From the NCBI GenBank assembly GCA_041389925.1, contig JAWKQX010000006.1:215837-279836 (forward strand): 64,000 bases of DNA. Direction: 5' to 3'. Below are positions 1-30,199 of the stretch, piece by piece. This DNA is from Kofleriaceae bacterium. Lineage in GTDB: Bacteria; Myxococcota_A; Polyangia; Haliangiales; Haliangiaceae. Every line of letters begins with the position of its first letter. Within the stretch, counting starts at the first letter, position 1. A program made the translations under genes and the position numbers. The notes below the pieces were generated by a model. It saw only the letters and a program-made list of their open reading frames with translations. It was not told the origin of the DNA and ran no database searches.

Positions 1-699
1 GACGACGGCGTTGCCGGTCGGCCGCCCGACGGGTGCGAACGTATGCTCGAGGTGCCACTGTTCGCAGAGGGCGCGGCAGTCGGCGCCGGTGTACTGCGGC
101 CCGTGGTCGGTGCGCAGTTCGACACCCTGGGGCACGCCGGCGGGCGATCCGAAGGACTCGACGAGCTTCGCAGTCACCGAGGCGAGCACGGCAGGCCCGT
201 GCTGGTCCTTGGTCACCGTGATGACGGCAGTCCGGTCGCCGCAGTCCATGGTCGGGACCAGCGCGACGATGCCGTCGCGGCGGGTCCACACCGTGGTGAG
301 GTCCGTCGCGAGGCGGCGATTCGACTCGGGGACGGCCACATGACCACGAGGCGTCTCGCCGGGCTCTCGGTCGCGGACGAGCACCAGGCCGTGCGCGCGC
401 ATCAGCGCGTGGACGCGCCGTCGAGACACCCGAAGCCCCTCGCGGCGCAGCGTCGCCCAGACCTTGCGAACACCCCAGGCGCGCGCGGTCTCCCTCGCGA
501 GCACCTCGCGGATGCGCTGGAGCACCACGTCGGCGCACGTATGGCTGGGCCGTGACGGCAGCCGCACCACGGGGGCTCCCTCGGTGGCCGGCGTGCGCCG
601 CTGGCGCTCGGCCTCGGCGTAGTACGCCGCGCGCGACAGATGGAACGTCTCGCACAGCAGCGCCACGCTCGCGGCCCCCGCGACGGTCTGGCGACTCAT
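1..699 (-). CDS. IS3-family transposase OrfB (DDE integrase core), C-terminus truncated by the window edge
   Basis: Minus-strand translation from the ATG at 699 (MSRQTVAGAASVALL...) contains RRRVHALMRAHGL, DHGPQYT and RPTGNAVV, which are integrase-core signatures. The ATG overlaps the orfA stop. Confidence 0.85.
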   Translation of the reverse strand, partial: MSRQTVAGAASVALLCETFHLSRAAYYAEAERQRRTPATEGAPVVRLPSRPSHTCADVVLQRIREVLARETARAWGVRKVWATLRREGLRVSRRRVHALMRAHGLVLVRDREPGETPRGHVAVPESNRRLATDLTTVWTRRDGIVALVPTMDCGDRTAVITVTKDQHGPAVLASVTAKLVESFGSPAGVPQGVELRTDHGPQYTGADCRALCEQWHLEHTFAPVGRPTGNAVV

Positions 700-1124
700 C
701 GCTTGGACCTCGCGGGCACGATAGGGCGGTTCGCACGCTCGGTCTCGAGCGCGTTCTCGAGCAGGCACTTCTGGATAGAGAGCTTGGTGACGACCTGCTC
801 GAGCTCCTGGTTCTTGCGCTCCAGCTGGAGCTCCGTCGGCGTCTTGCCGCTGCCCCGCCGCAGCGCCTCGGCGACGCCACCCAGCGCATCCTGGCGCCAA
901 CCCTCGACGGTCGAGGCGTGCACCCCGAGGCGGCGCGCTATCTGGTCGATGGTCGCCTTGCCGGCGAACAGCTCCATCACGGCGCGATGGCGCTCTTCAA
1001 CGGTACGACGACCGGGGCGAGCCCGAGCATCGGCGTCGTCACTCTCGGTGGCTTCGACTCCGGCCGAGGCCGGGGTGGCTGGTGGGGTGTCCGTCTTCTC
1101 GTTCATGCGGCGGGCTCGTCTCAA
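696..1124 (-). CDS. IS3-family transposase OrfA (HTH / leucine-zipper)
   Basis: 142-aa ORF containing RHRAVMELFAGKATIDQIARRLGVHASTVEGWRQ (HTH) and ELQLERKNQELEQVVTKL (coiled coil). It sits immediately upstream of orfB on the same strand. Confidence 0.85.
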   Translation of the reverse strand: MRRARRMNEKTDTPPATPASAGVEATESDDADARARPGRRTVEERHRAVMELFAGKATIDQIARRLGVHASTVEGWRQDALGGVAEALRRGSGKTPTELQLERKNQELEQVVTKLSIQKCLLENALETERANRPIVPARSKR

Positions 1125-1295
1125 GCGACCTTGTCCATTACCCGAATCACGGGGGATTTCCAGTTCCCGGCGGTGTCAACCTCGGGATGGGGAACACCGT
1201 ACTGGCCGTCGAGGAGCGGCCTTAGCCTGGGATCTCGATCGCCGGGCGCTTCGAGCGCCGTTGGCTCCATGGTAGTCTTCGGCGATGGGGACGCC

Positions 1296-2948
1296 ATGAC
1301 CAACGCAGCGAAGCCTTCGCTCGTTCGGCCACTCACGCGAGGGCCGATGGCGACGACGGTCACCGTGCGGGAGCTCATCGCGAAGGTCTCGGCAGGGGCC
1401 GTGCGGATCCCCCGCTTTCAGCGGCCGCTACGCTGGCGCGATGTAGACGTCGTGAAGCTCCTGGACAGCATCTCGAAGGGGTATCCCGTCGGCTCGCTCC
1501 TCTTCTGGAAGCGCGAGGCGCCCGCCGAGCCGCTCCAGGTGGGCGGGGCCACGATTTCGACCGAGCACACCGAAGACGCCTGGTGGGTCGTGGACGGGCA
1601 GCAGCGGACGACCGCGCTCGCCGCGTCCCTCCTTGATCTTGACCACGGCGGTGACGTTCGCTGGGTCGTGTCCTTTGACCCGGCGACGAACAGCTTTCGC
1701 AGCGGTCCGCCAAACCCGGAGGAGGAAGGGCGCGTGGTTCCCGTCTCGGTGCTGGGTGACCTGCGCCGCCTCGGACGGTGGATTCGCGACAGCCCGCTGG
1801 ACGAGGCGTCGACCGATCTCCTCGAGCAGGTGCAGCAGCGCCTGCTGGACTACGCGATCCCGGCGTACGTCGTGGACACGGAGGATGAGCAGGCGCTGCG
1901 TGCTGTGTTCGCGCGGCTCAACAGCACGGGCACACATATGCGCGAGGATGAGGTCTTCCACGCACTGTACGGTGCTCCATATCAAAGTGGTGCAGCCTCG
2001 CTCGACCTGGATGCGCTGCAGAACGCTTGCGACGTAGACGGGTTCGGCAAACCGCTGCGGGAAGATGTCTTGCGGGCGGTCCTCGCGATGGCGGGCCATG
2101 AGCCTTTTGCTCGGACCGACGTTAGCGAGCTTGACTCGGCGGAGCTACCGTCGCGCGGTGACGCCGAGCGGGTGCTCACCAATGTTCGCGAGTTTCTCTT
2201 CTCACAATGCGGAGTGCCGACCTACTCGTTGCTCCCGTACCCGGTGGCGTTCGTGATCCTCGTGAAGTGGTTCTACCTTCATCCCGACAGCGACCAACCC
2301 ACACGTCAGCAGCTCGCGCGTTGGTTCTGGCGTGAAGCCGCGGCGGGAGTTCACCAGGGCGCTGACGCAGTTCGTGTAGTTCGCATGCGGTTGCAGAGCA
2401 AAAAAATTACGTCGGATCTGCAAGGCTCGCTTGCTCGCCTGCTCGCACAGGCGCCGAGCGACGCGTTCACGGCCTCCCGGGGGTGGAGCTTGCAACGCTT
2501 CGGCTCGCGTAGCGCGCGGAGCCGCCTTGAGACCTTGGCGCTCTTGTCGCGCAGGCCTCGAGACAAGTTTGGAGAGGTGTCGATCGCAGAAGTCGAGGGG
2601 CGGCTGGCGCGAGAGATCTTCTCCTCAAACACCTGGGACGCGTTGGACCGTCCGGACCGCGGGCTGGCGACGACCGCAGCGAACCGGGCAATCCTGGATG
2701 CTAGGGATGTCGATCTCGACGCCCACCTCCGTGAATGGGATGCTGTGAAGGACGCAGAACGGCTACGCACTCACCTGATCGATGAGACATCGTTTCGCCT
2801 GCTGCTCAAGGGCGAGGTCGGCGCGTTTCTGCATCGAAGGGCGGAAGCTGTGCGCGAGTGCGTCGAGAGCTTCTTGCGGGATCGTTGTGCGTGGGAAGAG
2901 CCGCTGTTCCGCCTTCCAGACGCCTACATCGACAAGGATGACCCTTGA
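1296..2948 (+). CDS. DUF262 (ParB/Srx-like, DGQQR motif) domain protein, GmrSD/DndB-like N-terminal module with no recognizable DUF1524/HNH nuclease C-terminus
   Basis: RIPRFQRPLRW...VVDGQQRTTAL is the hallmark DUF262 motif. The ORF listed from 552 overlaps the IS, so I place the start at ATG 1296 (alternative ATG at 1347). The stop TGA overlaps the TTG start of the next gene. Confidence 0.75.
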   Translation: MTNAAKPSLVRPLTRGPMATTVTVRELIAKVSAGAVRIPRFQRPLRWRDVDVVKLLDSISKGYPVGSLLFWKREAPAEPLQVGGATISTEHTEDAWWVVDGQQRTTALAASLLDLDHGGDVRWVVSFDPATNSFRSGPPNPEEEGRVVPVSVLGDLRRLGRWIRDSPLDEASTDLLEQVQQRLLDYAIPAYVVDTEDEQALRAVFARLNSTGTHMREDEVFHALYGAPYQSGAASLDLDALQNACDVDGFGKPLREDVLRAVLAMAGHEPFARTDVSELDSAELPSRGDAERVLTNVREFLFSQCGVPTYSLLPYPVAFVILVKWFYLHPDSDQPTRQQLARWFWREAAAGVHQGADAVRVVRMRLQSKKITSDLQGSLARLLAQAPSDAFTASRGWSLQRFGSRSARSRLETLALLSRRPRDKFGEVSIAEVEGRLAREIFSSNTWDALDRPDRGLATTAANRAILDARDVDLDAHLREWDAVKDAERLRTHLIDETSFRLLLKGEVGAFLHRRAEAVRECVESFLRDRCAWEEPLFRLPDAYIDKDDP

Positions 2949-4198
2949 CCGCGACGCTCACGGCAGGGGCACAGGTCTGGATCTACGACGCGCGCGTGGG
3001 GACGTTGCAGAGAGATCCGAGCGGAGCTATCCGCTTCACGCCCGAGCGTGCGTGGCTCGAAGGTGGGCAGCATCCGCCCCTCGGCTTCGGCATGTTGGCC
3101 AAGCCCGGGGTGCGCGTTGGACGAACGGGCTTGCCGCCCTGGTTCGAGAACCTCTTGCCAGAGCAAGACGGTGCGCTTCGCCGGATGATCTGCCGCTCCC
3201 TGGGGCTCCGCACCAACGACTCGGCGGCGTTGCTGGTGGCGCTGGGAGACGACCTTCCCGGCGCGGTGCGAGTCGTCGGAGACGGCTTCGAGGATCCAGG
3301 TGGTGTACCAGCTGAGCTGGAAGGAGAAGCGGAGGTGCCGTCGTCTGCGCTGAAGATCTCCCTGGCAGGCCTTCAGCTCAAGCTGTCCATGTCCCTGGAA
3401 GGGGACCGGCTGGTCCTGCCCGTGAGCGGCGGCGTCGGCCGATGGATCGTGAAGATCCCAGGTGCGCAGTTTCCGGAGCTCCCGGAGATTGAGGCCGCGA
3501 CGATGAGCTGGGCCCGAGCGATGGGCCTCTCGGTCCCGCGGATCCTCGTCGTTCGCACGGAGGAGGTCCAAGGCGTGAGCGCTCGGATCATGGAGCACTC
3601 CCCCACGGTGTTCGCCATCGAGCGCTTCGACCGACTCGATGATGGCCGGGTGCACCAGGAAGACCTCGCGCAGTCCTTCGAGTTGCCCCCTACGTGCAAG
3701 TATGGAGATTGCTCCGAGCTGAGGAGTCGCGGGAAGATCCGCTACTCTGGTGTCGCGAAGCTGATCGGCGATCTCTGCGGCGACACGGGGCGTGACGATT
3801 TCCTGGATCGCCTGGCGTTCGTCATCGCCTCCGGGAACGGAGACGCCCACCTGAAGAACTGGTCCTTGCAGTGGTCGCATGAACATCGACCCCGGCTCTC
3901 CCCTTGCTATGACATGGTCGCGACGGTGTCCTGGCCCGAGCACGATCGTTCGCTCGCGCTGGAGCTGGTTCGTGGCGTAAGCGCGTTTGCGTCGATCGAT
4001 CGCACGGCGCTGAGGCGCTTCGTCGAGGCTGCCAACATCGAGCACGGCGAGGAGCGCGTCATCACCGCGCTGCAGCGCGCGCGGTCAAGCTGGAGCCAAG
4101 TTGCCCAGGATGCGCCGGAGCGCATGCGCGCCGCCTTGACAGCTCACTGGCAGGACGTTCCGCTGCTTCGCGAGCTCGGCGGCCTCGTCGACGAGTGA
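2945..4198 (+). CDS. HipA-like serine/threonine kinase toxin family protein
   Basis: HipA N-terminal pattern (VWIYDARVGTLQ...FTPERAWL), the GLQLKLSM loop, catalytic HQEDLAQ and GNGDAHLKNWSL (DxHxKN) motifs. The TTG start overlaps the upstream stop (TTGA), so the two genes are translationally coupled. Confidence 0.85.
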   Translation: MTATLTAGAQVWIYDARVGTLQRDPSGAIRFTPERAWLEGGQHPPLGFGMLAKPGVRVGRTGLPPWFENLLPEQDGALRRMICRSLGLRTNDSAALLVALGDDLPGAVRVVGDGFEDPGGVPAELEGEAEVPSSALKISLAGLQLKLSMSLEGDRLVLPVSGGVGRWIVKIPGAQFPELPEIEAATMSWARAMGLSVPRILVVRTEEVQGVSARIMEHSPTVFAIERFDRLDDGRVHQEDLAQSFELPPTCKYGDCSELRSRGKIRYSGVAKLIGDLCGDTGRDDFLDRLAFVIASGNGDAHLKNWSLQWSHEHRPRLSPCYDMVATVSWPEHDRSLALELVRGVSAFASIDRTALRRFVEAANIEHGEERVITALQRARSSWSQVAQDAPERMRAALTAHWQDVPLLRELGGLVDE

Positions 4199-4271
4199 GC
4201 TCGCGCAGCCGCGCAAGCGCAGAGGGCTTCCAGGGGCCGCCCCTGAGCCGAGCCCAACCCTCGCGCACGTG

Positions 4272-5582
4272 TCAGTACCGCAGCGCGCCCGCGAACAGCT
4301 CGCGCATCTGCGCGGCGTCCACGGCGCGCGGCGCGTTGTCGAGCAGGCGCCGCTGCAGCATCGCTCGCTCGACGAGCGGATCGAGATCCTCGGCGCCATA
4401 GCCCACGCCGACCAGGCCCTCGGGCATCGCCGTCTGCCGCATCAGGCCGAGCAGGTGGCTGGCGAGCACCTCTCCGGCGTCGGCGTTCGCGGCGCCGCGG
4501 ACCTCCGCGCCCAGCGCGCGCGCCGCCTCCAGGTGTCGCTCCGGGCACGCCTCGGCGGTGAAGCGCAGGACGCTCGGCGCGTTCAGGATGACGCTCATGC
4601 CGTGCGGCACCATCGGCGCGCCCTGCGGGTAGCCCGCCGGGTGAAAGTCTCGCACCAGCCCGGCGACCGCGTAGCTCATGCCGTGCGGCAAGTGCACGCC
4701 CGCGTTGCCAAACGCGATGCCGGCGAGCGTCGCCGCCCACGCCAGCTCGCCGCGCGCCTCGTCGTCGCTGGCGTCGCGCACCGCGCGCACCAGCGAGCGC
4801 CCCGCCAGCCGCAGCGCCTCCAGGCTGCCCAGATCGCTCCACGGGTTTCGCCCCTGGCTCATCGGCCGCGCCGTCGCCGGCGCGCTGCGCGGTCGCGCGC
4901 CGAGTGGCCGCGCCGTGTACGATTCGATCGCGTGCGACAGCACATCGAAGCCCGCCGCCGCGACCACCTCCGCCGGCAACGTGCGCGTCGCCTCCGGATC
5001 GATGACCGCCAGCGACGGCCGCAGCCGCCGCGACGCGATCCCCGTCTTCGCCGCCTGCGCAAGCAGGTCGAACACCGCGATGCCCGTGCACTCGGCGCCC
5101 GTGCCCGCCGTCGTCGGACACGCCACATGCGGCGGCAGCGGCCCCGGCACCGGCTGCCCGCCGCCGATGGGCGCGTTGACGTAGGTGAGGAACTCCGCCG
5201 GGTACGTCGCGTACAGCGCCGCCGCTTTTGCCGTGTCGATCACCGAGCCGCCGCCGACCGAGACGAACCCTTCGAAGCGCCCTTCCTTGGCGAAGCGCGC
5301 CGCCGCCTGAAACGATCGATCCGTCGGCTCGACCTCGACCTCGTCATACACCACGACGTCCAGCCCCGCGCGCCCCAGCGCCGCGTGCGCCGTGGCGAAG
5401 CACGGCAGCTTCGCCACGCGCTCGTCGGTGAACAGCGCGATCCTCCGCGCTCCCTGCGCGCCCACGTGGTCCCCCAGCTCCTCCAGCGCCCCGCGCCCGA
5501 ACACGATCGCGCTCGCATCGATGGAGAACACCCGCTCGGCGCCCACCTGCACCGCGAGCTCATGTCGACAGCCAGCCGGCAT
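4272..5582 (-). CDS. iron-containing alcohol dehydrogenase family protein (hydroxyacid-oxoacid transhydrogenase-like)
   Basis: [14 protein letters not shown] dinucleotide-binding motif, Fe-ADH His-rich motifs (HAIESY, HLPHGMS), 436 aa. Confidence 0.85.
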
Positions 5583-6010: not shown

Positions 6011-7093
6011 TCACGCGCCCGACGGTGCCAGCACAGCTCTATTCCCTAGCCCGGTTCCTGGATGTGCGCTGCGCGCGCCGATGATGGGCCGGAACTTCGC
6101 TGGGACCTTCGTCGTTGGCTCGGCAGGCGAGCAGGGGGAGCGATCAGGTGGGAGCAGCTTGGGGGTGCTTCGCTGTTTTCGTTTCCCGAAGAACTGCGTG
6201 GCGATCTCTCTCGCGAACACTTCCGCGAGCAGGGAGGGCACCGCGTTCCCGATCTGGCGCTGCACTTCGGTTCGACTGCCCCTGACCTGAATGTCATCCG
6301 GAAACGTCTGGATGCGGGCGAGTTCTCTCATCGACAGTCGCCGGTTCTGCCAGTGAAACGGCCCTACTGCTGGACCGGGTTGCGCCTGAACCGTCCAGGA
6401 CGGCAAGTGCTTTGCGAGCTTGAGCAAGAACGACCAGTAGCGGCGGCGCCAACCAAACAGTTCTTCCCCTCCCATGCGACTGGTGTGCCACGGGTAGTTG
6501 TGGCCCTCCGGGATCGATGGAAGTAAATCCGCCCACCGACCAGTGAGGGCGACTGGTTCGCCTGGCTCTGGCCCCACGTCTGCGAGCGCGTCCCACGCCG
6601 TGCGATAGAGGGAGAGCTGCGACGAAAACAGATCAGTCGGCGATTTCGTAGGATCCGCGTGAGTTGGTCCTGGAAACCTGAACTCTGAACCGTCGCGAGA
6701 CGCGACCATGACCAGTTGACATGGTGGCCCCCCAATCAGTACGGCGGCCTCTCCCTTCTTCAAGTTGACGCCCTCGAGGATCTCACCGCTGGGCACTTTC
6801 AAGATGTCCCTCTCGATCACGGGCCAGCCCCTCCCGTTGTTGCGCAGCGTCTCCTGGAGCAGTCGGGAGAGAACACGTGGAAGATGCCCGCATGAGATTC
6901 TTCGTGGGACGTGTCGACGCGCACGCGCGTCCTTCCGGTGTGGGCGATGTAGCCGATCGGCTACAAACGCCGCGAAAGGTGACCGTCGCTTCCTGCGCGC
7001 CAGGATTTCCGCTACGTTCGCCCCGTGAGAGCGCGGTGGCGCGGTGGAAGCAGCGAACGTCGAGACCTCGAAGCGGCGGATGAGGTGTGGCAT
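6011..7093 (-). pseudogene. C5-cytosine DNA methyltransferase-like gene, degenerate (motif I SAM-binding region absent)
   Basis: C-terminal 360 aa of the long minus ORF carries GGPPCQ (motif IV) and RELARIQTFPDD...QIGNAVP (motifs IX/X). No FxGxGG motif I is present, and the upstream part of the ORF is a low-complexity shadow. Confidence 0.5.
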
Positions 7094-7246
7094 GACGAGG
7101 CGCGACGCTTGGCAGTCACGAAGGTGTCCGCCACCGATGATGCGCTGTTGGCGCAACTGCTTGAGGGAGGCAAGGCTGCTGCGCTGGCCCCGGGCAAGCT
7201 GACGCTCGTAGAGGCCGAGCTGCTGCGAGCCAGTCGGACGCCGCAG

Positions 7247-10200
7247 ATGAGCCCGGACACCGCGCTCGAGTATGCGCGGTGGATCCTGCGCGCGGAACGC
7301 GAGGGGCCCGCGGCGCCCTCCGCGCCAACAGCCCTCCGCGCCGACGCGCGCCCGGCGCGCGACGTGCCTGCGCCTGGGGCACCCGCGGCGAGGGAGCCCG
7401 CGCGGCTGCGCGTTGTCGATGACCTTGCATGGAGCGGCGCTCTGGCACGCCGAAGCGGAGCGCACGACGCGCGCGCGCCCGCAGCGGACGCGCGCACCTG
7501 GCCTCGCCGCGGCCGCGCTGACTCCGCGGCCGCTCGCTGGGCCCCGCCGAGCAAGGTCGCGGCGAGGCCAACGCCGGGGGGCCTCGTCGATCCAGAGCAG
7601 GATCGCGGCGAGCACGCGCTGGAGCGCGCTCTCACCCTCGTGCGCGCCGACGGTGAGGGCGCGCCGCTCGCTTCGTCCGTGAGGTTGTCCCTCGACGCCG
7701 AACTGGGCGAGGTGTCTGCGCGCGCCCGTGTCCACACCAGCTCGCTCGCCGCCGAGGCCGCGCAGCTGCTTGGCGCCCAGGCGTTCACCGTTGGTCGCGA
7801 CATCTATTTCGCGGACGGACAGTATGCGCCGGACACCGCTGCGGGCGTTCGGTTGCTTCGGCATGAGCTCACCCACGTCGCCCAGCACGAGCGTGGCGAG
7901 CTCGCCGCGCACGGGGACGCCAAGGTGCTCGCGCCGTCCAGCGCGCAGGAGGCCGAGGCTCACGCCGCCGAGCACCGCGCTCCCGGCGTCGGCGCCTCCA
8001 CGGCCATCGCCTCCCCCGCAGGAGCCAAGAACGCTCCGTTCCTGGCGCGGCCCACAGACGACCTCTTCTCCGCCGATGGGCGCACCAGCGCGATCACCAG
8101 CACCGCGATCGCTCGCAAGCCCGGGGACGCGCCTACCGCCATCCCTGCCGGCGGTGTCAACATCAACAAGGTCGGCGTGGTAGCTTGGGACGGCGCGCCA
8201 GCGCTGCGCCTGCGGTCGGCGCGCAGCACCGGCAGCAAGATCCTCGCCGAGCTGCTCTTCAACAGCCGCTTGCAGGTCATCAAGGAGTTCCCCGGCCAGT
8301 GGTACTTTGTCTCGACGCAGTCGGGGCTCCTGGGCTACGTCTTCAAGGCGCACGTCAAGACCAACCTGCCCGAGCCCGGTGCCAAGCTGCACAAGGTCAA
8401 GGCTGGCCGGTCCGGCTTCGCGATCGCCATCGCCGAGCAGCACTATCGCGCGCACGCCGACGACTGGGGGCAAGATCTGCGCTTCTACGTCAATGTGCTC
8501 GCCTGGGTGAACAAGCGCCCCGTGCCGGACTCGACGGCTGGATGGAAGCGCCTCCAGTTCCGCGCGGGCGAGCTGATCTGGATCCCGACGCCGTCCTTCG
8601 CGCGCAGCCTGCGCGGCGTCGTCAACTCGGGCTCGGTGTCGTACAACGCGCTCGACGCGGTCGGCCTCGCCGGCTTCCTCGAGCGGACCGGCGAGCTCTG
8701 GGACGACGTGCGCGCGGCGATCTCGCTCTCGACCAAGTATCTACCCGCCGCCATCCGCGCCCACGTCGAAGAGTCGCTCTGGTCGATCCTGGAGGCGATG
8801 GCCTTGCTGCTCGTCGGCGCCGCAGCGGTGCTGGCGATCTCTACGGCGATCGGCGCCGCGCTCGGCGCGCTGGCCGGCGGCGCGGGCGCTGCGCCGGGCG
8901 CGGCCGCCGGCTTCGAGGTCGGCCTGGTGCTGCTCAACTGGCTCGGCCTCGGCTTCCTCATCGTCTGGCTCGGGCAGTCGTTGGTCAAGGTGGGCGGCGC
9001 CTTCGGCACGTTCCTCGGCCAGATCTGGGGTGCTCGTGGTGACGCCGCCAAGGTTGACCTGGCCGCCCGCCAGTTCGCCGAGGCGATCGGAACGCTGTGC
9101 GGCGTGCTCATCGAGGCGCTGGTGATGTGGGCCGCCTCCATCGGCGTGGGCCGCGCCATGGGCGTCCTCCGCGGCACGCGCTTCGGCAAGGGGTTCCAGA
9201 GCACGGCCGCCGGCGAGTGGCTGACGCGTCGGGTCGACGCGGTCAAGAGCGGAGACGCCGCGCTGCCCACGCCGAAGGAGGCGTGGAACAAGTTCTCCTG
9301 GAATCGCACCCCGACCGCGAAGCGCCTGCTCGAGCTCTTCGGGGCGACGGCGAGCGAGCACTTCCGCCCGATCGAGCCGAACAAGGTGAGCGTCCATGGT
9401 GAGCTCAAGATCTCGGCGCGCGCGCTGGACGCGCTGTCCGACGCAGATCTGGTGAAGCTCGTCGAGCTCTGCAAGAACAAGGGGCCCGCGGAGGCCTATG
9501 CCTACTTCGAGTCCTCCAGCACCAACGGCGGCAAGCCCGGCGCTCGCCTGCGCTTCGAGTCGCGCCTGCAGGAACGCGCGCAGCAGGTGGTGGACGGGAT
9601 CCGTGAGAGCCTGGGCATCAAGCCTGGCGACGCCCGCGCCAAGCTGCTGGAGAACCTGAGCGAAGGTGACAAGCTCCGCCTCTGGGATCTGTTCAACGAG
9701 CAAGCGTTCAAGAACGCCCAGCTCCGCAAGCAAGCCGCCGAGTGGGCCCTTGGCAAGAAGCCCAAGACCGTGCGAGAGCTGGTAGCGCAGATGCAGTTCT
9801 TCGAGGCCGAGGTGAGCAGGCAGGGAGAGTTGCTCACCGAGCGCGTGAGAGAAGAAAATGCGCGACTCCTACGAGACGCAGCGGACGCCAAGGGCGGTGA
9901 TCTGAGCCCTGTGGAGCAGCGAAACATTACGCGTGAAGTGACGGAGAGGATCCTGGGCAAGGCGCTCGATGCCATTGGTACGGCTGCGGAGAAGGCGGCC
10001 CGAACAAAAGCGCTAGGCGATCTCAACCAGAGTTCTACGGCGTCGGTGGATGCGGCCTGGAGGAGCAACCTCACGGCACAGACTGGCGCCAACGCGCCGC
10101 GGCCGATTCGCCTCGGGGCTCATGATGATGCAACGCTTCCGGCAAAGGTTCAGGAGGCTGGCGATCGCCTCACGTTTGGTAGCGATGCCGATGGCGCGTA

Positions 10201-19133: not shown

Positions 19134-19976
19134 TCAGCGCTTGGCGAGCTTGATCCCCAGCCCGGCCGCGTCGGCGGGGTTCTGGATGGTGTGAGGCCAC
19201 AGCCACTTGCGCAGGTTTACCGTGGCGCGCAGGAACTCGGGATCCCAGGTCTCGACGATGGAGGGGTAGGCGTCGATGAGCAGCGAGCCGTTGATCTCCT
19301 GCGCCGCGAGCGCGCCGGCGGCGCGGGCGTCGGCGGCGGAGAGCTGGCTCGCCAGCTTGGGGCCAAGCAGGGTGACCGGGTAGAGCCGGCGAGCCTTGGT
19401 CCAGCGGTCAGAGGCAGAAACGCAATCGTGCTTGTTGCGTTCTACGTAGGTCGGGGCCTCGAGCTGGCAATTTCCAGAGTCCTCCACTTCGCAGTACGCT
19501 TGATTGAACGATGGCGCGGCGAGCAAGCCGCCCGATACCGGTTGGAGTGCACGCGCGAGCTGTTCGAGCACTTGCCTGCCGGCAGTCAGAACCGGAGACG
19601 TGCTACTGGCTCGTTGTTCACTCACGAAATAGAAGGTCCTCGGGGAGGACGGCCGCAACCGAGGATCAGGGGCGGAGCGGAGCTGCAACTTGGCGCTGAA
19701 CCACACGTCCTTGGGTGCGCCCGCCACCAGGTTCAGAACCTGGACCTCACCGTCCGCGATGGCCTCTTCTACGGCTTGCCACTTGAAGCCTCGCCAGCGA
19801 CCTTCTTGCCGCCCCTTGTACACGGACATCTTGATCTCAGCACCGGATGGGATCAACAGGCTCAGACTGGATCGCGCCACCGCCAGGGCTCGATCTGTGT
19901 GGGTCGCCGGGTCTGAGTCAAAGTATGCAAATGCCGCGAGAGCGCCTCTGAACTCGGTCACAGTTATTGCTCGCAC
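19134..19976 (-). CDS. putative immunity protein, paralog B (280 aa)
   Basis: See paralog A. Its start overlaps the stop of orphan toxin fragment 2. Confidence 0.7.
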   Translation of the reverse strand: MRAITVTEFRGALAAFAYFDSDPATHTDRALAVARSSLSLLIPSGAEIKMSVYKGRQEGRWRGFKWQAVEEAIADGEVQVLNLVAGAPKDVWFSAKLQLRSAPDPRLRPSSPRTFYFVSEQRASSTSPVLTAGRQVLEQLARALQPVSGGLLAAPSFNQAYCEVEDSGNCQLEAPTYVERNKHDCVSASDRWTKARRLYPVTLLGPKLASQLSAADARAAGALAAQEINGSLLIDAYPSIVETWDPEFLRATVNLRKWLWPHTIQNPADAAGLGIKLAKR

Positions 19977-20158
19977 CGGTATTGCTGCGCGCAGCGATCA
20001 TACAGCTCTCGCCTGCTTCGGAACACCAATTCGTCATCCTTCTTGTCCTTGGCGGGGTCCCTGCGGCAGTTTGCTTCGATGAGCACTTGCAGGGCATGTC
20101 CTCCCAGGTCCGAAGCGGCGTCTTCTCCTCGTCGCATGCGCTCTTGGTGGTAGTTCAC
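19964..20158 (-). pseudogene. orphan toxin C-terminal fragment 2 (last ~64 codons of the toxin C-terminal domain)
   Basis: NYHQERMRRGEDAASDLGGHALQVLIEANCRRDPAKDKKDDELVFRSRRELYDRCAQQYRCEQ aligns to the toxin terminus (VRNYHQERMRNGEDASSQLGGHALQSLIETNCRKDYSKDKKDDELYFNSRTESYDRCKQQYQCEQ). Confidence 0.7.
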
Positions 20159-20182
20159 GACGGCGGAGGTGTAGCTAGGGAG

Positions 20183-20389
20183 ATCGGGTACCGGCGCTGC
20201 GGCGCAAGGTCGTTGAAGAAACAGCTCGCGTCTCGACGCGACGCGAGCGTCGTTCAGGGACGCGCGCGACGTCGGCGCGAGACGCTCACTCCACCACGTC
20301 GGCTTCGATCTCGATCAGCATCGCAGGATCGATCAGCGCCTTGACCTCGACCATCGACGTGGCGGGGCGGTGCTCGCCGAAGAACGCGG
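20183..20389. repeat. 207-bp direct repeat, copy 1 (3' end of ridA plus downstream sequence), matching 23880-24087
   Basis: Near-identical run gagatcgggtaccggcgctgcggcgc...gtgctcgccgaagaacgc at both sites. Copy 1 encodes only a truncated RidA C-terminus (ORF 20286-20477). Confidence 0.85.
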
Positions 20390-20393
20390 TCAA

Positions 20394-20555
20394 GTCTCTT
20401 TCCTGGCCTTCAGCGAATGGCCGACCATCTTCCCCAACGCCGTGTGCACGACCGCGCTCATCGACCGCGTCGTCCACCGCGCCGAGATCATCGCCATCGA
20501 AAGTGAGAGCTACCGCAGGCGAGAGTCATCACGCCGCTCGAAGCCCAAGGCGTGA
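20394..20555 (+). mobile_element. IS21-family istB (helper ATPase) 3' fragment
   Basis: ...FPNAVCTTALIDRVVHRAEIIAIESESYRRRE is the characteristic IstB C-terminal sequence (LxDRLxHHAxxxxIxGESYRxxE). No upstream istB or istA is present, so this is a remnant. Confidence 0.7.
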
Positions 20556-20595
20556 ACCGGCCGGTTCAGATTTTCGCGGTTTCACGCGACCGCCA

Positions 20596-20722
20596 ACAGA
20601 GCTCAGCGCTTGGCGAGCTTGATCCCCAGCCCAACCGCGTCGGCGGGGTTCTGGATGGTGTGAGGCCACAGCCACTTGCGCAGGTTTACCGTGGCGCGCA
20701 GGAACTCGGGATCCCAGGTCTC
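20596..20722 (-). pseudogene. duplicated 3' end (~42 codons) of an immunity gene, orphan fragment
   Basis: Sequence cagcgcttggcgagcttgatccccagcc...gggatcccaggtctcgaa matches the 3' ends at 18022-18150 and 19138-19265. It lies between the istB fragment and immunity paralog C. Confidence 0.7.
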
Positions 20723-20738
20723 GAAGCTCCAGCCTCTC

Positions 20739-21578
20739 TCACCGCTTGGGCACCTTGACGCCGAGGCCGACCGCGTCGGCGGGGTTCTGGATGGTGTGGG
20801 GCCACAGCCACCGTCGCAGGTTTACGGTGGTGCGGAGGAACTCGGGATCCCAGGTCTCGACGATGGAAGGGTAGGCGTCGATCAGCAGCGAGCCGTTGAG
20901 CTCCTGGACCGCGAGGGCGCCGGCGGCGAGAGCGTCGGCGGCAGAGAGCTGGTTGGCGAGCTTGGGGCCGAGCAGGGTGATCGGGTAGAGCCGGCGGGCC
21001 TTGGTCCAGCGGTCGGAGGCATGCATTCGGTCAAACTGCAGGCGCTCCTTGAACTCCTTCGATTCGTGCTCGTAGCTGAATGGATAGTCGACTTCGCAGT
21101 CGGCCTGTACGAAACTCTCACCGCGAAAACATCCTCCGGACAGGATCTCTGCGCCTCTGGCGCAAACCTCGAATATCCGGTGAGCTGTGTCCGCGAGGCC
21201 AATGCTCGCACTCGCGCTGGACTCCAAGGAGAAGGAGAACTGGCGAGGCGCATCGGATCGGAGGCGTGGGTCGGGGTTGCAACGCAGCTCTAGCATGCCG
21301 TGGAATGAGACATCATCATCCTTCGATCCGATGCAAAGGTCGATGACCTCTACGAGCTCGTCGCCCACGGCCTCGTCGAACGCGCTCCACTTGAACTTGC
21401 GCCACTTGCTCTTCTTTCGAGGCGTCCTGTAGAGGCTCATCCTCATCAAGTCGACAGGAAGAGAGGTCTCGTCGAGGAGTGCTGACGCTGCCGCGTGCGC
21501 GACCTCCGCGTGTATTGCGGGGTTCTTCTCGAAGTACACGAAGACGCCGACGGTGGGCACGCTAGGGCGAGGGCTCAT
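20739..21578 (-). CDS. putative immunity protein, paralog C (279 aa), cognate to the intact toxin
   Basis: Its start overlaps the toxin stop (ATGA at 21575-21578). Paralogous to A and B. Confidence 0.7.
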   Translation of the reverse strand: MSPRPSVPTVGVFVYFEKNPAIHAEVAHAAASALLDETSLPVDLMRMSLYRTPRKKSKWRKFKWSAFDEAVGDELVEVIDLCIGSKDDDVSFHGMLELRCNPDPRLRSDAPRQFSFSLESSASASIGLADTAHRIFEVCARGAEILSGGCFRGESFVQADCEVDYPFSYEHESKEFKERLQFDRMHASDRWTKARRLYPITLLGPKLANQLSAADALAAGALAVQELNGSLLIDAYPSIVETWDPEFLRTTVNLRRWLWPHTIQNPADAVGLGVKVPKR

Positions 21579-23743
21579 TGTTCACACTGGTACTGTTGCT
21601 TGCACCGGTCATAGCTCTCTGTCCTGCTGTTGAAATATAGCTCATCGTCCTTCTTGTCTTTGCTGTAGTCCTTGCGGCAGTTGGTCTCGATGAGTGATTG
21701 GAGTGCATGGCCGCCTAGCTGAGAAGACGCATCCTCTCCGTTGCGCATCCGCTCCTGATGGTAGTTCCGAACGGCGGAGACATAGTCGCCGAGCTTGAGC
21801 CGACCTGCATATCCCGCAGGCTTGAACTCCAGCACCCAGCAGTCTTGCTTGCCCTTGACTAGCACGCAGTCCGGCCGGTCCTTGCTGAGCCCCGGATACC
21901 CTGAGACGTCGTACAGGTTGCAGCGGAACTCCTTGCCCTTGTCGTTGTGCGCCTGCACACCATAGGCCCTGGCGAACTGGATCGCCGGGTTGTCGTTGCC
22001 GCGCCAGTGGCCGTTCTTGGCCTTGAGCCTGAGCAGGCGCTCGCGTTGCTTCTCGATCTCGGCGAGCACGGCGTTGGCGCCGTCGCGGTACTTGGCCTTG
22101 GCGGCGAGCTTCTTGCCTGTTTCCACGAGCGCAGGGGCGCGCGCGAGGACGCCGTCGATCAGACGCGACTCGCGGTCGATGACCTCGGCGGTCTTCTGCT
22201 CGACGAGCGAGTCCTCGGGCTCCTCGTTGGGCTCGAACTCCACGCCGCACCAGGCGTCCCACAGCTGTTGCATGTCCTTGCAGTCGAGCACGTAGATGCC
22301 TCGGGCGTCGGCCTCCCAGGCGGCGCCCTCTTTCTGGTAGGTCGCGAGGTCGTTGGAGGCGACGCTGCCGAGGCTGCTCAGGAACGTGACGACCTCAGGG
22401 TGACCGACGCCCTTGGCGAGGGCGTCGCACGCGGCGTGGATGCGCTTGTCTTGCTCGTCTCGATAGTCGAGCAGGGCCTTGGCGGCGCGCTGGAGGTTGG
22501 CCTTGACCTGCCGCCAGCGATCGTCGCGCGGGTCGAAGGCGTTTGCCGTCGCGACCAGGCCCGCGTTGGTGGTGCGCTTCCCGTCGGCCCAGGCCAGCGA
22601 CTTGCGATAGTGGTCACCGTGCTTGGCCGCTAGCTCCGGGATGGTCACCAGCGCGTCCGGATCGCGCGCGGCCAGCGCCTGCTTCATTTGCTCGCGCAGC
22701 GCAGCTTCGTCGTTCCTGCACTTGCCCTCCGCTTCGTCCAGCTCGTGCTGCGTGTGCTTGAGCGCGCGCAGCGCCTGCGACGCCGGCTCGAACGCGCGGA
22801 TGTAGTCGGGCCAGGTCTCGGCGATCTGCTTGGCCTTCTTGTCCGCGCCCTTGACCGCCTCCACCTGGCGCACGAGGTAGTCCACCTCGGTCATCACGGT
22901 GCGGGCCTCGTCGATCTTGGCCGCCGAGCTGTCGCCGACGGAGTCGTTGATCAAGCTCTCGATGCGGCGGAACTTCTCGTCCAGCTTGACGTAGAGCTGG
23001 TCCTTGCCTTGCGCCGTGCTGGCTAGCTCGCGCAGCACGCGCTCGATCACCGGGTGCTGGTCGCGGCGGCGCAGGTCGCGGCACGCCGTCTCCGCCTGCG
23101 CGTAGTCGGCTTGCCAGGCGGCGAGCATGCCGGTGGCGGCGTATTGCACCCGACTGGAGACGTTGGACCACGCGTCCGAGGCCGAGAACTGCTGCGCGTA
23201 GCTGGCCCAGCTCTGCAGCTCGGCCTTCTTGCGATCCGCGGTGCTCCACCACTCTTCCGCCTTGCTGCCCACGTCGAGCGCGAGGCGGCGGAGCTCCTCG
23301 ATGCGCGCGCCGTCCTTGTCGCGCTCAAACGCGGTCGCTTGCTCCACCAGTGGCCGCTCCAGATCCTGGCAGCGCCGCGGGAGCTCGCTGACGCTGCGCT
23401 GGTCTGCCTTGAGCTGCACCAGGTACTGCGCAGCTCGATCGAAGTCGTCGCAGATGCGTGGGTAATACGAGACGTAGTTGTTCGCGGTCGAGTCGCCGCC
23501 CTTGACCCGCTCCAACGACGAGAGCCGCGCGCGCACCTCTCTCACCCGGCCGCGCGCGCTCTCGATATCGCTCGCGCTCGAGTCGTTGGCCACGCCGTCC
23601 AGATCGCTCGCGGCGTCGTTGAGCAGCCGCTGGATCTCGCTCACCAGCGCCTGTCGATCGGAGTCATCGTCCGCGTGTCCGCTGCGCATCGCGATCATCG
23701 CTGCGATGCCCGCTCCAACTGCGACCCAAGTCCTGCGCTTCAT
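21575..23743 (-). CDS. Sec-secreted polymorphic-toxin-like protein (722 aa): signal peptide, long alpha-helical region, C-terminal ~160-aa Cys-containing toxin domain that recurs as orphan fragments
   Basis: N-terminal MKRRTWVAVGAGIAAMIAMRSGHA signal. Two degraded C-terminal copies sit downstream, each followed by an immunity paralog. The gene is tightly coupled to paralog C. Confidence 0.7.
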   Translation of the reverse strand: MKRRTWVAVGAGIAAMIAMRSGHADDDSDRQALVSEIQRLLNDAASDLDGVANDSSASDIESARGRVREVRARLSSLERVKGGDSTANNYVSYYPRICDDFDRAAQYLVQLKADQRSVSELPRRCQDLERPLVEQATAFERDKDGARIEELRRLALDVGSKAEEWWSTADRKKAELQSWASYAQQFSASDAWSNVSSRVQYAATGMLAAWQADYAQAETACRDLRRRDQHPVIERVLRELASTAQGKDQLYVKLDEKFRRIESLINDSVGDSSAAKIDEARTVMTEVDYLVRQVEAVKGADKKAKQIAETWPDYIRAFEPASQALRALKHTQHELDEAEGKCRNDEAALREQMKQALAARDPDALVTIPELAAKHGDHYRKSLAWADGKRTTNAGLVATANAFDPRDDRWRQVKANLQRAAKALLDYRDEQDKRIHAACDALAKGVGHPEVVTFLSSLGSVASNDLATYQKEGAAWEADARGIYVLDCKDMQQLWDAWCGVEFEPNEEPEDSLVEQKTAEVIDRESRLIDGVLARAPALVETGKKLAAKAKYRDGANAVLAEIEKQRERLLRLKAKNGHWRGNDNPAIQFARAYGVQAHNDKGKEFRCNLYDVSGYPGLSKDRPDCVLVKGKQDCWVLEFKPAGYAGRLKLGDYVSAVRNYHQERMRNGEDASSQLGGHALQSLIETNCRKDYSKDKKDDELYFNSRTESYDRCKQQYQCEQ

Positions 23744-23879
23744 GTTGCGCCTCCCACCCCATGCGAAGGGTCTCCGCGCACCCTACACGATCGCGCTGCA
23801 GATCGAGGTCCGAACTTGCGCGCATCGCGAAGCCGCGCACGGCGGAGATCGCGCGTGTGGCTGCGTCACCGGTGAGATC

Positions 23880-24087
23880 GGGTACCGGCGCTGCGGCGCC
23901 AGGTCGTCGAGGAAACAGCTCGCGTCTCGACGCGACGCGAGCGTCGTTCAGGGACGCGCGCGACGTCGGCGCGAGACGCTCACTCCACCGCGTCGGCTTC
24001 GATCTCGATCAGCATCGCGGGATCGATCAGCGCCTTGACCTCGACCATCGACGTGGCGGGGCGGTGCTCGCCGAAGAACGCCGCGTG
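23880..24087. repeat. 207-bp direct repeat, copy 2 (inside the intact ridA 3' end and its downstream region)
   Basis: See copy 1. The two copies bracket toxin-immC on one side and the orphan cassettes on the other. Confidence 0.85.
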
Positions 24088-28214: not shown

Positions 28215-29111
28215 ATGCGAACGACCAAGCTCCTCGCCTTTGTGCTGCTGGCGGCCGCCGCCTGTCAGCAAGAAGGTCCACCCAAGTTTCAGTTCTCCAA
28301 AGACGTCGAGGCTCCCGCTGCCGCCTCGGGGGACCTCGCCACGCGCGTCGCCGCGCTGGAGGCGGAGGCCGCCAAGAACAAGGAGGCCCTCGAGTTCCTC
28401 AACCAGGTCTTCGCGCAGCAGAAGAAGGCCTCCGATGAGGAAGAGCGCCGCACCGCCGCGCCCGACGCGGTCTTCGCGATCGGCATCACTGGAAACGCCG
28501 TTGACGGTCCCGCCACCGCCGCTGTGACGCTGGTGGAGGCCTGGGACTTTGCTTGACCCTACTGTGAGAGGGTCAGTTCGACCCTCAAGCAGCTGGTGAA
28601 GGAGTACAACGGTCAGCTTCGCGTCGTTTACAAGAACTTCGTCGTGCACCCCGACACGGCGATGGATGCTCACCTCGCCGCGTGCGCGGCGCAGGCGCAG
28701 AACAAGTTCATGGAGTTCAAAGAGGCCTTCTGGGTGAAGGGCTTCGGCGAGTATCGCAACACCCGCGACCCGAGCAAGATGGCGGAGCCGGCGCTCCTCG
28801 AGATCGCCCGGGGGCTCGGCCTCAACGCCGACAAGCTCAAGGCCGACATGCGCGGCTCCACGTGTCAGGAGCGCGTCAAGTCGGACCAGGACGAGCTCAA
28901 TCGGTTCGGCGTCGGCGGAACGCCGGCGTTCTTCATCAACGGCAAGCCGTACCGCGGTGGTCCGGACGCGTCCCAGTTCAAGGCCGCGATTGACGCCGCG
29001 CTCAAGCAGGTGCAGGGGTCCGGCGTCGCGGCGAAGGACTACTACCAGAAGGAGGTCCTCGAGAAGGGCGAGAAGAAGTTCCGCTCGATCAAGGACCCCA
29101 AGCCGAGCTAG
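28215..29111 (+). CDS. DsbA-like thioredoxin-fold thiol:disulfide oxidoreductase lipoprotein, predicted selenoprotein (UGA at 28554-28556 read as Sec within a U-P-Y-C motif)
   Basis: ORFs 28215-28556 and 28596-29111 are in the same frame and separated only by TGA. The translation aligns residue-for-residue with the downstream paralog across the TGA (...LVEAWDFA-U-PYCERV...LKQLVKEYNGQLRVVYKNFVVHPDT versus ...LVKAFDFA-C-PYCQMA...VKQLVKEYNGKLRVVYKNFVVHPDT). A hairpin sits 14 nt downstream. Lipobox: LLAAAAC. Confidence 0.65.
28557..28590 (+). promoter_or_regulatory. candidate bacterial SECIS element (stem GAGGGUC / GACCCUC 28568-28574 and 28580-28586, apical loop AGUUC)
   Basis: Perfect 7-bp stem starting 11 nt after the UGA, with a GU-containing 5-nt apical loop about 22 nt downstream. 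This matches bacterial SECIS geometry. The paralog lacks this palindrome because its codons differ (ERVSSTLK versus QMANDPVK). Confidence 0.55.
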
Positions 29112-29278
29112 CCCTTGGCTCTTCAGCCTCACTCCGGGAGCGCTGCGCCCGGAGTGGGGAATGGTGTTTTGCGTCTTTGCGCGCCGAAAGATTTTCTCAC
29201 TTTCTCGGGAATTTCTTTCTGAAGCGTTTTTGCGTTTTGCTTCTAGGCAAACGACGCGTTCGGCGCAAAGTTTCGCTC

Positions 29279-30199
29279 ATGCCAAAGACCAAGCTCCTCG
29301 CCTGCTCGCTGCTCGCAGCGATGTCAGTCGCCAACGCCGCGTGCGATGACACGCGGAATCCGAAGTTCGAGTTCAAGTCCGCCGAGGCGGCGACCGCCGA
29401 GGCGGCGATGGGCTCCGGGGACCTCGCCTCGCGCGTCGCCGCGCTGGAGGCCGAGGCCGCCAAGAACAAGGAGGCCCTCGAGTTCCTCAACCAGGTGTGG
29501 GGACAGCAGAAGCAGCAGCGCGAGGCCCAGGAGGCCACGGTGCCGGCGCCGGACGCGGTCTTCGCCATCGACGTCACCGGCGATCCGTATGACGGCCCCG
29601 CCGACGCGCCGGTCACGCTGGTGAAGGCCTTCGACTTCGCGTGCCCCTACTGCCAGATGGCCAACGATCCGGTCAAGCAGCTCGTCAAGGAGTACAACGG
29701 CAAGCTGCGCGTCGTGTACAAGAACTTCGTCGTCCACCCGGACACCGCCACCAACGCGCACCTCGCCGGCTGCGCGGCGTGGGAGCAGAAGAAGTACATG
29801 CAGTTCAAGGACGCCTTCTGGGAGAAGGGCTACAACGCGTACCGCTCGACGCGTGATCCGTCGAAGATGGGCGAGGAGAACATCCTGGCGATCGCCAAGG
29901 AGGTCGGCCTCGACCTGGCGAAGTTCACCGCCGACATGAAGGGCGAGAAGTGCAAGAAGCAGCTCGAGGGCGACATGGCCGAGCTGTCCAAGTTTGGCAC
30001 CAACGCGACGCCGTCGTTCTACATCAACGGCCAGCCCTACCAGAACGGCCTCGAGGTCGCCTCCTTCAAGTCGGTCATCGACCAGAAGCTCAAGGAGGTC
30101 GAGGCGTCCGGCGTGCCGGGCAACCAGTACTACCAGAAGGTCGTGATCGAGAAGGGCGAGAAGAAGTTCCGCTCCAAGAAGGATCCGAAGCCGTCCTGA
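29279..30199 (+). CDS. DsbA-like thioredoxin-fold thiol:disulfide oxidoreductase lipoprotein (Cys form, CPYC active site)
   Basis: FDFACPYCQ active site, signal/lipobox (VANAAC), 306 aa. Paralog of 28215-29111. Confidence 0.8.
   Translation: MPKTKLLACSLLAAMSVANAACDDTRNPKFEFKSAEAATAEAAMGSGDLASRVAALEAEAAKNKEALEFLNQVWGQQKQQREAQEATVPAPDAVFAIDVTGDPYDGPADAPVTLVKAFDFACPYCQMANDPVKQLVKEYNGKLRVVYKNFVVHPDTATNAHLAGCAAWEQKKYMQFKDAFWEKGYNAYRSTRDPSKMGEENILAIAKEVGLDLAKFTADMKGEKCKKQLEGDMAELSKFGTNATPSFYINGQPYQNGLEVASFKSVIDQKLKEVEASGVPGNQYYQKVVIEKGEKKFRSKKDPKPS

Follow-up and report, generated by a model that had tools for sequence, protein, structure and literature searches.

A survey of Hip kinases distinguished ten gene organisations, none of which has a partner protein with a DUF262 domain, and every characterised member of the HipA family is a growth-arresting toxin (Gerdes et al. 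2021, PMC8262856). A two-gene system known as HipAD or DS-6 (the same as PDC-M66) has been validated as anti-phage in E. coli; its activity depends on the kinase, and its authors proposed a toxin-antitoxin (TA)-like nature for it (PMC13092281; PMC12548924). Here we analyse a pair of overlapping genes, coding for a DUF262 protein and, directly downstream, a full-length HipA kinase, which is located in a 64,000-nucleotide (nt) stretch of DNA from Kofleriaceae bacterium (assembly GCA_041389925.1, contig JAWKQX010000006.1, positions 215,837 to 279,836). The whole stretch is referred to below as the window, and the DUF262 protein as the partner. The pair is a conserved two-gene unit and not a chance adjacency. 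With modest confidence, we suggest that it constitutes a TA-like module, in which HipA would be the toxin and the partner, a GmrSD-like nucleoside triphosphatase (NTPase), its neutraliser and probable sensor.

The characterised relatives of the partner, i.e. BrxU, SspE, HEC-06 and DndI, are all defence proteins. A role in nucleotide hydrolysis has been described for the DGQQR motif of HEC-06 and BrxU, and mutation of the catalytic dyad of their nuclease domain abolishes defence (10.1101/2024.01.29.577857). Two multigene systems with a DUF262 component have also been reported. PDC-M55 is a candidate cassette of three protein families, comprising an ABC ATPase (A), protein B and a DUF262 protein (C) (Payne et al. 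2024, preprint), while ptuXYZ combines a nuclease-less DUF262 protein with a PtuA-like ATPase and a PIN/BECR RNase (Gerdes 2025, PMC11980606). The DUF262-HipA pair as a system is not in PADLOC v2, which recognises only the paralogue PDC-M55C, and no description of it was found in the openly searchable literature. This is in keeping with the original prediction, made from the letters of the window, which had called the pair a candidate for an undescribed system.

One genome per GTDB species was scanned with an alignment of the DUF262 protein, which yielded more than 513 relatives, and the best 80 loci were inspected. Of these, 75 extend far enough downstream to be informative, and in 74 of them hipA follows the DUF262 gene directly and on the same strand. 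In five of the six loci without a HipA call, the sequence breaks off within the DUF262 gene or no more than about 100 nt beyond it, and Streptomyces luteosporeus was the sole inspected locus that had downstream sequence yet no hipA. The 74 paired loci span the Myxococcota, Actinomycetota (Streptomyces, Amycolatopsis, Saccharomonospora, Salinispora, Frankia, Mycobacterium and others), Gamma- and Betaproteobacteria, Chloroflexota, Planctomycetota and Riflebacteria (at least seven phyla). A pair on a chromid of Azospirillum, whose kinase is labelled by NCBI as a type II TA HipA toxin, adds the Alphaproteobacteria. Cultivable genera with this gene family include Streptomyces, Amycolatopsis, Salinispora, Saccharomonospora, Methylomonas, Azohydromonas and Azospirillum.

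Measured from the start codon closest to the profile-predicted start, the overlap of the two open reading frames (ORFs) amounts to 1-17 nt in 53 of 70 loci, and a gap of 0-3 nt separates them in 12 more. Moreover, the two proteins diverge together, i.e. their pairwise identities are correlated (r = 0.86, 58 pairs) down to about 27% identity. No third gene was recurrent within 4 kb on either side, as judged by all-against-all clustering of the flanking ORFs and by Pfam searches, and no helix-turn-helix (HTH) or HipB gene recurred among the 147 called neighbours searched with Pfam. The adjacency noticed in the original prediction is therefore conserved, as a translationally coupled unit of two genes, and the absence of an HTH gene beside the pair, which it had also noted, extends to the related loci, where no such gene is conserved. 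A candidate for a natural fusion of the two proteins, P0108 (766 aa, from a JGI metagenome), was rejected. It joins partner residue ~442, just past the REIY site, to HipA residue ~104, with removal of the partner C-terminus and the HipA N-subdomain; this is an internal deletion and no evidence for an interaction.

The window matches a metagenome-assembled genome of the Kofleriaceae (Myxococcota) at 100% identity. In it, both ORFs were found with the overlap that had been read from the sequence at the outset, the TGA stop of the partner gene running into the TTG start of hipA (Table 1). The ATG of the partner gene is preceded by GGGGA. A shorter database model of this protein (533 aa, start at M18) cuts into residues 9-19, and since these residues are conserved among the homologues, that model is probably too short. 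For hipA, TTG is the sole in-frame start, and the database model P0121 begins at the same codon. The motifs named by the original prediction, i.e. DGQQR in the partner (aa 100-104) and HQEDLAQ (aa 237-243) and DAHLKN (aa 300-305) in HipA, are all present.

The partner had been described at first as a DUF262-only protein, a description that does not hold. Its AlphaFold2 model (built with 42 homologues; predicted local distance difference test score, pLDDT, 90.6; predicted template modelling score 0.86) was aligned by Foldseek with BrxU and SspE over the full length, with BrxU as the top structural match; the fold matches also include ParB, Noc, PadC and the pNOB8 ParB-N domain. In profile comparisons with hhalign, the partner family matched the BrxU family with a probability of 99.1, over aa 24-356 only, and BrxU alone likewise aligned only with aa 24-356. 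The C-terminal part on its own gave a match to BrxU below significance (E = 0.014, probability 3%), in which R-E of the partner was placed opposite D-H of BrxU. The decisive comparison was that with relatives from viral contigs whose HNH motif is intact, since it spans the proteins over their full length (aa 19-528 against 25-536; probability 100%, E = 5.9e-54) and establishes the homology of the C-terminal DUF1524-type (His-Me finger) domain. The whole partner is thus homologous to enzymes of the GmrSD/BrxU/SspE type, the C-terminal domain included.

The viral relatives are GmrSD-like proteins of about 530 aa encoded by the IMG/VR contigs L085, L086, L088, L091 and L096 (e.g. L085:778-2436), with an intact HNH site (FHHIYPK / IANIAFL). 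Their motif reads F/Y-H-H-I/V-Y/F-P-K, followed by I-A-N-I-x-F-L. They are the nearest nuclease-competent relatives of the HipA-linked partner family, and their C-terminal domain escapes the Pfam GmrSD_C model.

At the nuclease site itself, R439-E440 of the partner lie opposite the viral H-H dyad, where BrxU has D-H (DHIYP) and HEC-06 has E-H (EHICP). A (D/E/H)-H dyad was present in none of 54 members of the partner family, and 31 different tetrapeptides occupy the site in these 54 sequences. Other elements of the domain are retained, namely the strand of the structural Asn (Table 1) and a later S-H (S in 50/54, H in 53/54). The partner is thus best described as a GmrSD-type protein with an intact NTPase motif and a predicted dead nuclease. 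The original prediction had held that a DUF1524/HNH domain in the C-terminus would make the protein an ordinary GmrSD. A homologous domain is indeed there, but the partner is not an ordinary GmrSD, because the catalytic dyad is lost.

Scans with Pfam, NCBIfam and PADLOC gave no match to a DUF1524/HNH domain in the 54 members, even at E <= 1. The silence of Pfam does not show that the domain is absent, since BrxU itself falls below the cutoff: the validated nuclease domain of BrxU from pEFER (L081:18711-20474) scores only 17 bits against the Pfam GmrSD_C (DUF1524) cutoff of 23, and most BrxU homologues are without a precomputed GmrSD_C match. Annotations of the "DUF262-only" kind are therefore unreliable in this superfamily.

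These results bear on the simplest alternative, according to which an ordinary type IV restriction enzyme of the GmrSD type stands by chance beside an unrelated orphan hipA. The full-length homology in fold and sequence to GmrSD, BrxU and SspE is what such an enzyme would display. However, the adjacency in 74 of 75 loci across phyla, the overlapping codons and the co-divergence of the two proteins speak against chance, and the dyad needed by BrxU and HEC-06 is missing in all 54 members. We regard this explanation as very improbable indeed.

The downstream gene encodes a kinase with the catalytic motifs that the original prediction had found intact, and their residues are kept throughout the family. 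HipA_C covers aa 138-387 (Pfam, E = 1e-36). The family profile matched the solved structures of E. coli HipA (E = 2e-31), HipT (E = 6e-31) and Shewanella HipA. S139 aligns with the autophosphorylation site S150 of E. coli HipA, and D300, N305 and D323 align with its D309, N314 and D332. Residues G142, K146, K170, D300, H302, K304, N305 and D323 were invariant in 54 of 54 diverse kinases of the family.

The relation of the pair to classical hipBA was approached from the kinase side, by a metagenome scan with the HipA alignment that gave 72 loci with readable upstream sequence. A DUF262 partner was found upstream of hipA in 24 of them. Most of the others carry, in the same position and with stop/start overlaps of 1-16 nt, a gene for an Xre-type HTH protein of 90-215 aa resembling HipB; a motif test picked up 31 such HipB-like proteins. 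When 134 kinases were placed on a neighbour-joining tree, one change sufficed to account for partner type, and in bootstraps with E. coli HipA as the outgroup the HipB-linked kinases were monophyletic in 83 of 100 replicates and the DUF262-linked kinases in 25 of 100. The two groups are thus sister or nested lineages, one partner swap apart. The closest other HipA kinases have a canonical hipB gene upstream, with the same kind of overlap, so that the GmrSD-type protein, with its predicted dead nuclease, stands in the place of HipB.

The C-termini of the upstream proteins offer a further point of comparison. P536 and Y544 of the partner are invariant within the close family. The tail reads P-x-x-x-Y-[L/Y/F]-[D/E] in partners from the Myxococcota (LPDAYIDKDDP in the window) and D-T-P-P-L-x-x-[L/F]-x-[L/I]-[D/E]-D in those from the Actinomycetota and Gammaproteobacteria. 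The C-terminus of E. coli HipB touches HipA (PMC8262856), and it is therefore plausible that partner and HipB have a docking tail in common. In the sister clade, the HipB-like proteins encoded upstream of hipA (L131-L201) have P-[A/L/M]-Y-x-L-D and then acidic residues at their C-terminus, and several of them, 196-215 aa long, have an additional C-terminal region.

Decaying copies of the pair were also recorded. In five loci (L027, L049, L052, L060 and L041) hipA is frameshifted, stop-bearing or absent beside an intact partner gene. L049 is the complete genome of a Dactylosporangium, L052 an Actinoalloteichus and L060 a Frankia symbiont; three of the five cases come from isolates (Dactylosporangium, Actinoalloteichus and Streptomyces luteosporeus). 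The opposite pattern, an intact HipA next to a partner with a frameshift close to its end, was seen once, in a metagenome-assembled genome (MAG) (L008), and both genes were lost in three loci. Such an asymmetry is what would be expected of a toxic HipA and a protective partner.

The roles might also be reversed. HipA could act as a regulator that phosphorylates the partner or a shared target and thereby activates the DUF262 (ParB/Srx) domain for a DNA-directed function, the partner being the effector. The motifs of that domain are intact, and some proteins of the ParB/Srx fold, to which the fold matches with ParB, Noc, PadC and pNOB8 ParB-N point, are nucleases or NTP-dependent clamps. Kinase-type antitoxins occur in type VII TA systems. 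On the other hand, it is HipA and not the partner that the decaying copies lose, the dedicated nuclease site of the partner is gone and hypervariable, and the sister clade couples the same kind of kinase to a HipB antitoxin. A regulatory HipA would, in addition, depart from every characterised member of its family, all of them growth-arresting toxins (PMC8262856). This reversal of roles seems improbable to us.

If HipA is the toxin, a mechanism may be envisaged by analogy with HipA and HipT. HipA would stop growth through phosphorylation of a translation factor that the cell cannot do without, e.g. an aminoacyl-tRNA synthetase. The GmrSD-like partner would bind HipA and hold the kinase inactive, possibly via its conserved, flexible C-terminal tail with Pro, Tyr and acidic residues. 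On detection of a cue (e.g. DNA that is foreign or modified, or a shift in the nucleotide pool) by the sensor half of the partner, HipA would be released, and the kinase-driven growth arrest would amount to abortive infection. The TA-like interpretation receives a further point from the paralogue PDC-M55C, which also lacks the dyad and is coupled to an ABC ATPase and a second protein, suggestive of effector swapping. A true anti-phage role, which forms part of this interpretation, is proposed only tentatively. A broader evolutionary scenario, possible rather than probable in our opinion, is that a type IV restriction lineage lost its nuclease and was rewired as a sensor and antitoxin of HipA in replacement of HipB, with a tail that docks as that of HipB does, giving rise to a multi-phylum family of abortive-infection systems missed by current tools.

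Whether such a module serves defence or is a plain TA cassette was considered in the light of its genomic context. The flanks of about 65 related loci are heterogeneous, with 189 Pfam families among 147 neighbours, none of them seen more than 4 times. PADLOC matches among these neighbours were few, i.e. AAA_21/AriA-like proteins (three), MADS components, DarG, DrmD and PD-T4-6. A plasmid search gave one chromid-borne pair, that of Azospirillum, the other plasmid matches being PDC-M55-like or other DUF262 proteins. The original prediction had placed the pair in a defence-island context; the IS3 element upstream and the Dcm fragment downstream are real, but most of the related loci are situated outside defence islands.

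It may accordingly be asked if the pair is no more than a type II TA system of addiction or persistence, i.e. selfish DNA, in which the partner senses nothing and serves as a DNA-binding antitoxin and autorepressor in place of HipB. Gene order, overlap and the HipB-equivalent position are as in classical hipBA, the variable and mostly non-defence contexts are typical of TA cassettes, the pair is absent from the phage and viral collections searched, and the Azospirillum kinase already bears a type II TA label. However, an invariant NTP-hydrolysis motif and a three-domain build of 550 aa, kept down to about 30% identity, would be unneeded in a simple antitoxin. The closest paralogue belongs to the candidate defence system PDC-M55, which stands side by side with the pair in one locus (L025), the relatives BrxU, SspE, HEC-06 and DndI all act in defence, and HipAD demonstrates that HipA modules with unusual partners are able to defend against phage. 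We therefore consider a plain TA system rather unlikely.

Several points weigh against the TA-like module that we favour, or limit what may be claimed for it. The neighbours of the pair are mostly housekeeping or miscellaneous genes, and the context gives little independent support for defence over plain TA. The DUF262-HipA pair was not found on phage genomes or IMG/VR viral contigs. The swap between HipB and DUF262 may have gone in either direction, the DUF262-linked kinases being monophyletic in only a quarter of the bootstraps. The likeness of the partner tail to that of HipB is qualitative, and its acidic codons overlap the Shine-Dalgarno sequence of hipA and could be forced by it. The decay asymmetry comes from small numbers, i.e. 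six loci, some of them MAGs. Finally, HipA toxicity, its neutralisation by direct binding, the trigger, the target of the kinase and the anti-phage role are all things that we infer.

For the copy in the window there is an additional consideration, which likewise counts against it as a working module: with the IS3 element close upstream, it may have been cut from its native promoter. Fewer than 170 nt separate the end of the element from the start codon of the operon (OrfA start at 1124, operon start at 1296); a search for repeats across the window gave no useful indication of the IS ends. A scan of 1050-4400 for promoters and terminators gave nothing above the expectation from shuffled sequence and no sigma-70-like promoter, by an E. 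coli-type consensus that is a poor guide in Myxococcota. Expression of this copy is uncertain, although both ORFs are intact. This copy alone might thus be a silenced remnant, separated from its promoter when the IS3 element inserted, irrespective of what the family does in other genomes; the position of the element and the failure to detect a promoter both fit such a history. Both ORFs are nevertheless full length with all conserved residues present, the promoter consensus was ill suited to this phylum, and IS elements often supply outward-reading promoters. We consider silencing unlikely.

Downstream of hipA, the window contains a convergent Fe-alcohol dehydrogenase gene, then a C-terminal Dcm fragment and then a gene for an eCIS_core/SH3/DUF6861 protein. 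The Dcm fragment (~6200-6350), which corresponds to no more than the final ~50 residues of the methylase model, lies just upstream of the latter gene and on the opposite strand; the protein (eCIS_core + SH3_3 + DUF6861, 1133 aa) is encoded at 7025-10426 (+). Several near-identical direct repeats (130-275 nt, 86-99% identity) occur within 18005-24081, at 18.0, 19.1, 20.6-20.7, 22.0 and 23.9 kb. They sit among minus-strand ORFs of about 275 aa and have the look of duplicated cassettes, possibly a toxin/immunity region that corresponds to the polymorphic toxins of the original prediction. At 28325-30193, about 1.09 kb are duplicated in tandem (73-91% identity) across two adjoining ORFs. At 61735-64000, a long degenerate GAC-rich repeat array codes for motifs of the D-x-D-x-D-G type (thrombospondin type 3-like, calcium-binding) and runs off the right end of the window.

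Table 1. Features of the DUF262-HipA operon and its upstream context in the window, and decayed hipA copies in related loci (positions refer to the window unless a locus is named)
Feature	Coordinates	Strand	Remarks
IS3-family element (context)	1-1124	-	OrfA 696-1124 (Pfam HTH_Tnp_1); OrfB 1-699 (HTH_21 + rve), runs off the window
DUF262 partner gene	1296-2948	+	550 aa; DUF262 NTPase-type N-domain, helical middle, degenerate DUF1524-type C-domain
DUF262 / GmrSD_N (ParB/Srx-like) domain, aa 25-225	1368-1970	+	Pfam PF03235, E = 2e-23
FQR motif of partner	1416-1424	+	FQ residues invariant across the family (54 members)
DGQQR, aa 100-104	1593-1607	+	Nucleotide-hydrolysis motif of GmrSD-like proteins; invariant in 54/54
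AREIFS, aa 438-443	2607-2624	+	Degenerate counterpart of HNH motif I (BrxU VDHIYP; viral FHHIYPK)
AANR, aa 461-464	2676-2687	+	Counterpart of the His-Me finger structural Asn strand (viral IANIAFL); A462, N463, R464 kept in 50-52/54
Partner C-terminal tail (EEPLFRLPDAYIDKDDP)	2904-2945	+	Candidate HipA-docking peptide (putative); pLDDT 69-79; conserved Pro and Tyr544
AAGGA, Shine-Dalgarno-like for hipA	2934-2938	+	Within the end of the partner gene, 6 nt upstream of TTG; read from sequence
TTGA	2945-2948	+	Partner TGA stop overlapping hipA TTG start
hipA	2945-4198	+	417 aa, full-length HipA-family Ser/Thr kinase gene
Couple_hipA (HipS-like) N-subdomain, aa 10-110	2972-3274	+	Pfam PF13657, E = 8e-20; TIGR03071
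Gly-rich loop SLAGLQLK, aa 139-146	3359-3382	+	G142 and K146 invariant; S139 conserved
Catalytic motif DAHLKN, aa 300-305	3842-3859	+	Mg-binding D323 at 3911-3913
Decayed hipA, L049	L049:11525-12663		
Decayed hipA, L052	L052:5203-6423		
Decayed hipA, L060	L060:11637-12914		
Decayed hipA, L027	L027:11452-12910		

Should the TA-like interpretation be correct, the pair would represent an eleventh, phylogenetically coherent Hip gene organisation, in which a large NTPase of restriction-enzyme ancestry takes over from the small HTH antitoxin. It would also provide a worked example of effector swapping, one dead-nuclease GmrSD scaffold being wired to a kinase here and to an ABC ATPase in PDC-M55, and a route to the natural trigger of HipA-type kinases, as the ligands of the candidate trigger family (modified DNA, NTPs) are understood in BrxU and SspE. 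At present, annotation leaves a gap: PADLOC sees a lone PDC-M55C-like protein, and NCBI a type II TA toxin with a plain "DUF262" partner.

Compared with the Hip systems, the window pair is closest in layout to hipBA of E. coli K-12, in which the partner gene is likewise upstream of hipA and overlaps it, and the nearest other kinases are those of true hipBA pairs. The window HipA, with its N-terminal subdomain and intact core kinase motifs, has the features of a HipBA-type kinase. The partners differ, since that of hipBA is an Xre-HTH protein of about 90 aa and the one described here a GmrSD-like NTPase of 550 aa; the adjacent upstream gene codes for a DUF262 protein, and HipB-like genes are found only in the sister clade. 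In HipBST the kinase is split into HipS and HipT, which occur together with HipB, whereas the module in the window has two genes and its HipS-like N-subdomain is fused within one 417-aa protein, an arrangement shared with HipA but not with HipT. HipAD/DS-6/PDC-M66 resembles the pair in having two genes, for a HipA-family kinase and a large partner other than HipB. That partner is a DUF3037-DUF1829 protein, in contrast to the DUF262/dead DUF1524 protein of our pair, and the PADLOC models of PDC-M66 are not matched by the kinases analysed here, which match PDC-M03A only, and weakly.

With GmrSD, BrxU, SspE, HEC-06 and DndI the partner has in common the three-domain architecture and the DGQQR motif. 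It differs from the GmrSD family in having R-E or variable residues in place of the catalytic (D/E/H)-H dyad, and from the type IV enzymes of that family in not being a stand-alone protein, as it is always coupled to a kinase. The PADLOC model of PDC-M55C was matched by 54 of 54 partners (best E = 8e-71; E = 1.7e-56 for the window protein), and PDC-M55C proteins, like the HipA-linked partners, are without the nuclease dyad. However, components A and B are absent beside the window gene and are not recurrent in the related loci, where the gene for HipA, a protein that matches no PDC-M55 model, is found instead. PDC-M55C is thus a paralogue of the HipA-linked partner and not a part of the same system. 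A complete PDC-M55 was identified at L025:3786-8293 (-), with an AriA/GajA-like ABC ATPase (604 aa), a 319-aa protein and a 576-aa DUF262 protein (E = 5.6e-81 with the C model). It divergently adjoins a DUF262-HipA pair at L025:10001-13074, so that two paralogous dead-nuclease GmrSD scaffolds with different effectors lie next to each other. An array of the PDC-M55 type with the same layout (AAA ATPase, hypothetical protein, DUF262 protein) is carried by the mobilizable plasmid pYEE5 of Paracoccus yeei (L083:3663-7662), beside a ParE/CopG TA pair and a recombinase.

The system ptuXYZ follows the same logic, in that the toxic effector is a separate protein to which a DUF262 protein without a nuclease is coupled. 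It differs in that it has three genes and that an RNase and an ATPase take the place of the kinase. PtuX is described as shorter, with the C-terminal domain wholly absent, while the partner analysed here keeps a degenerate C-terminal domain. Both halves of the DUF262-HipA pair come from known families, and the principle of a HipA kinase with an unusual partner has already been demonstrated by HipAD.

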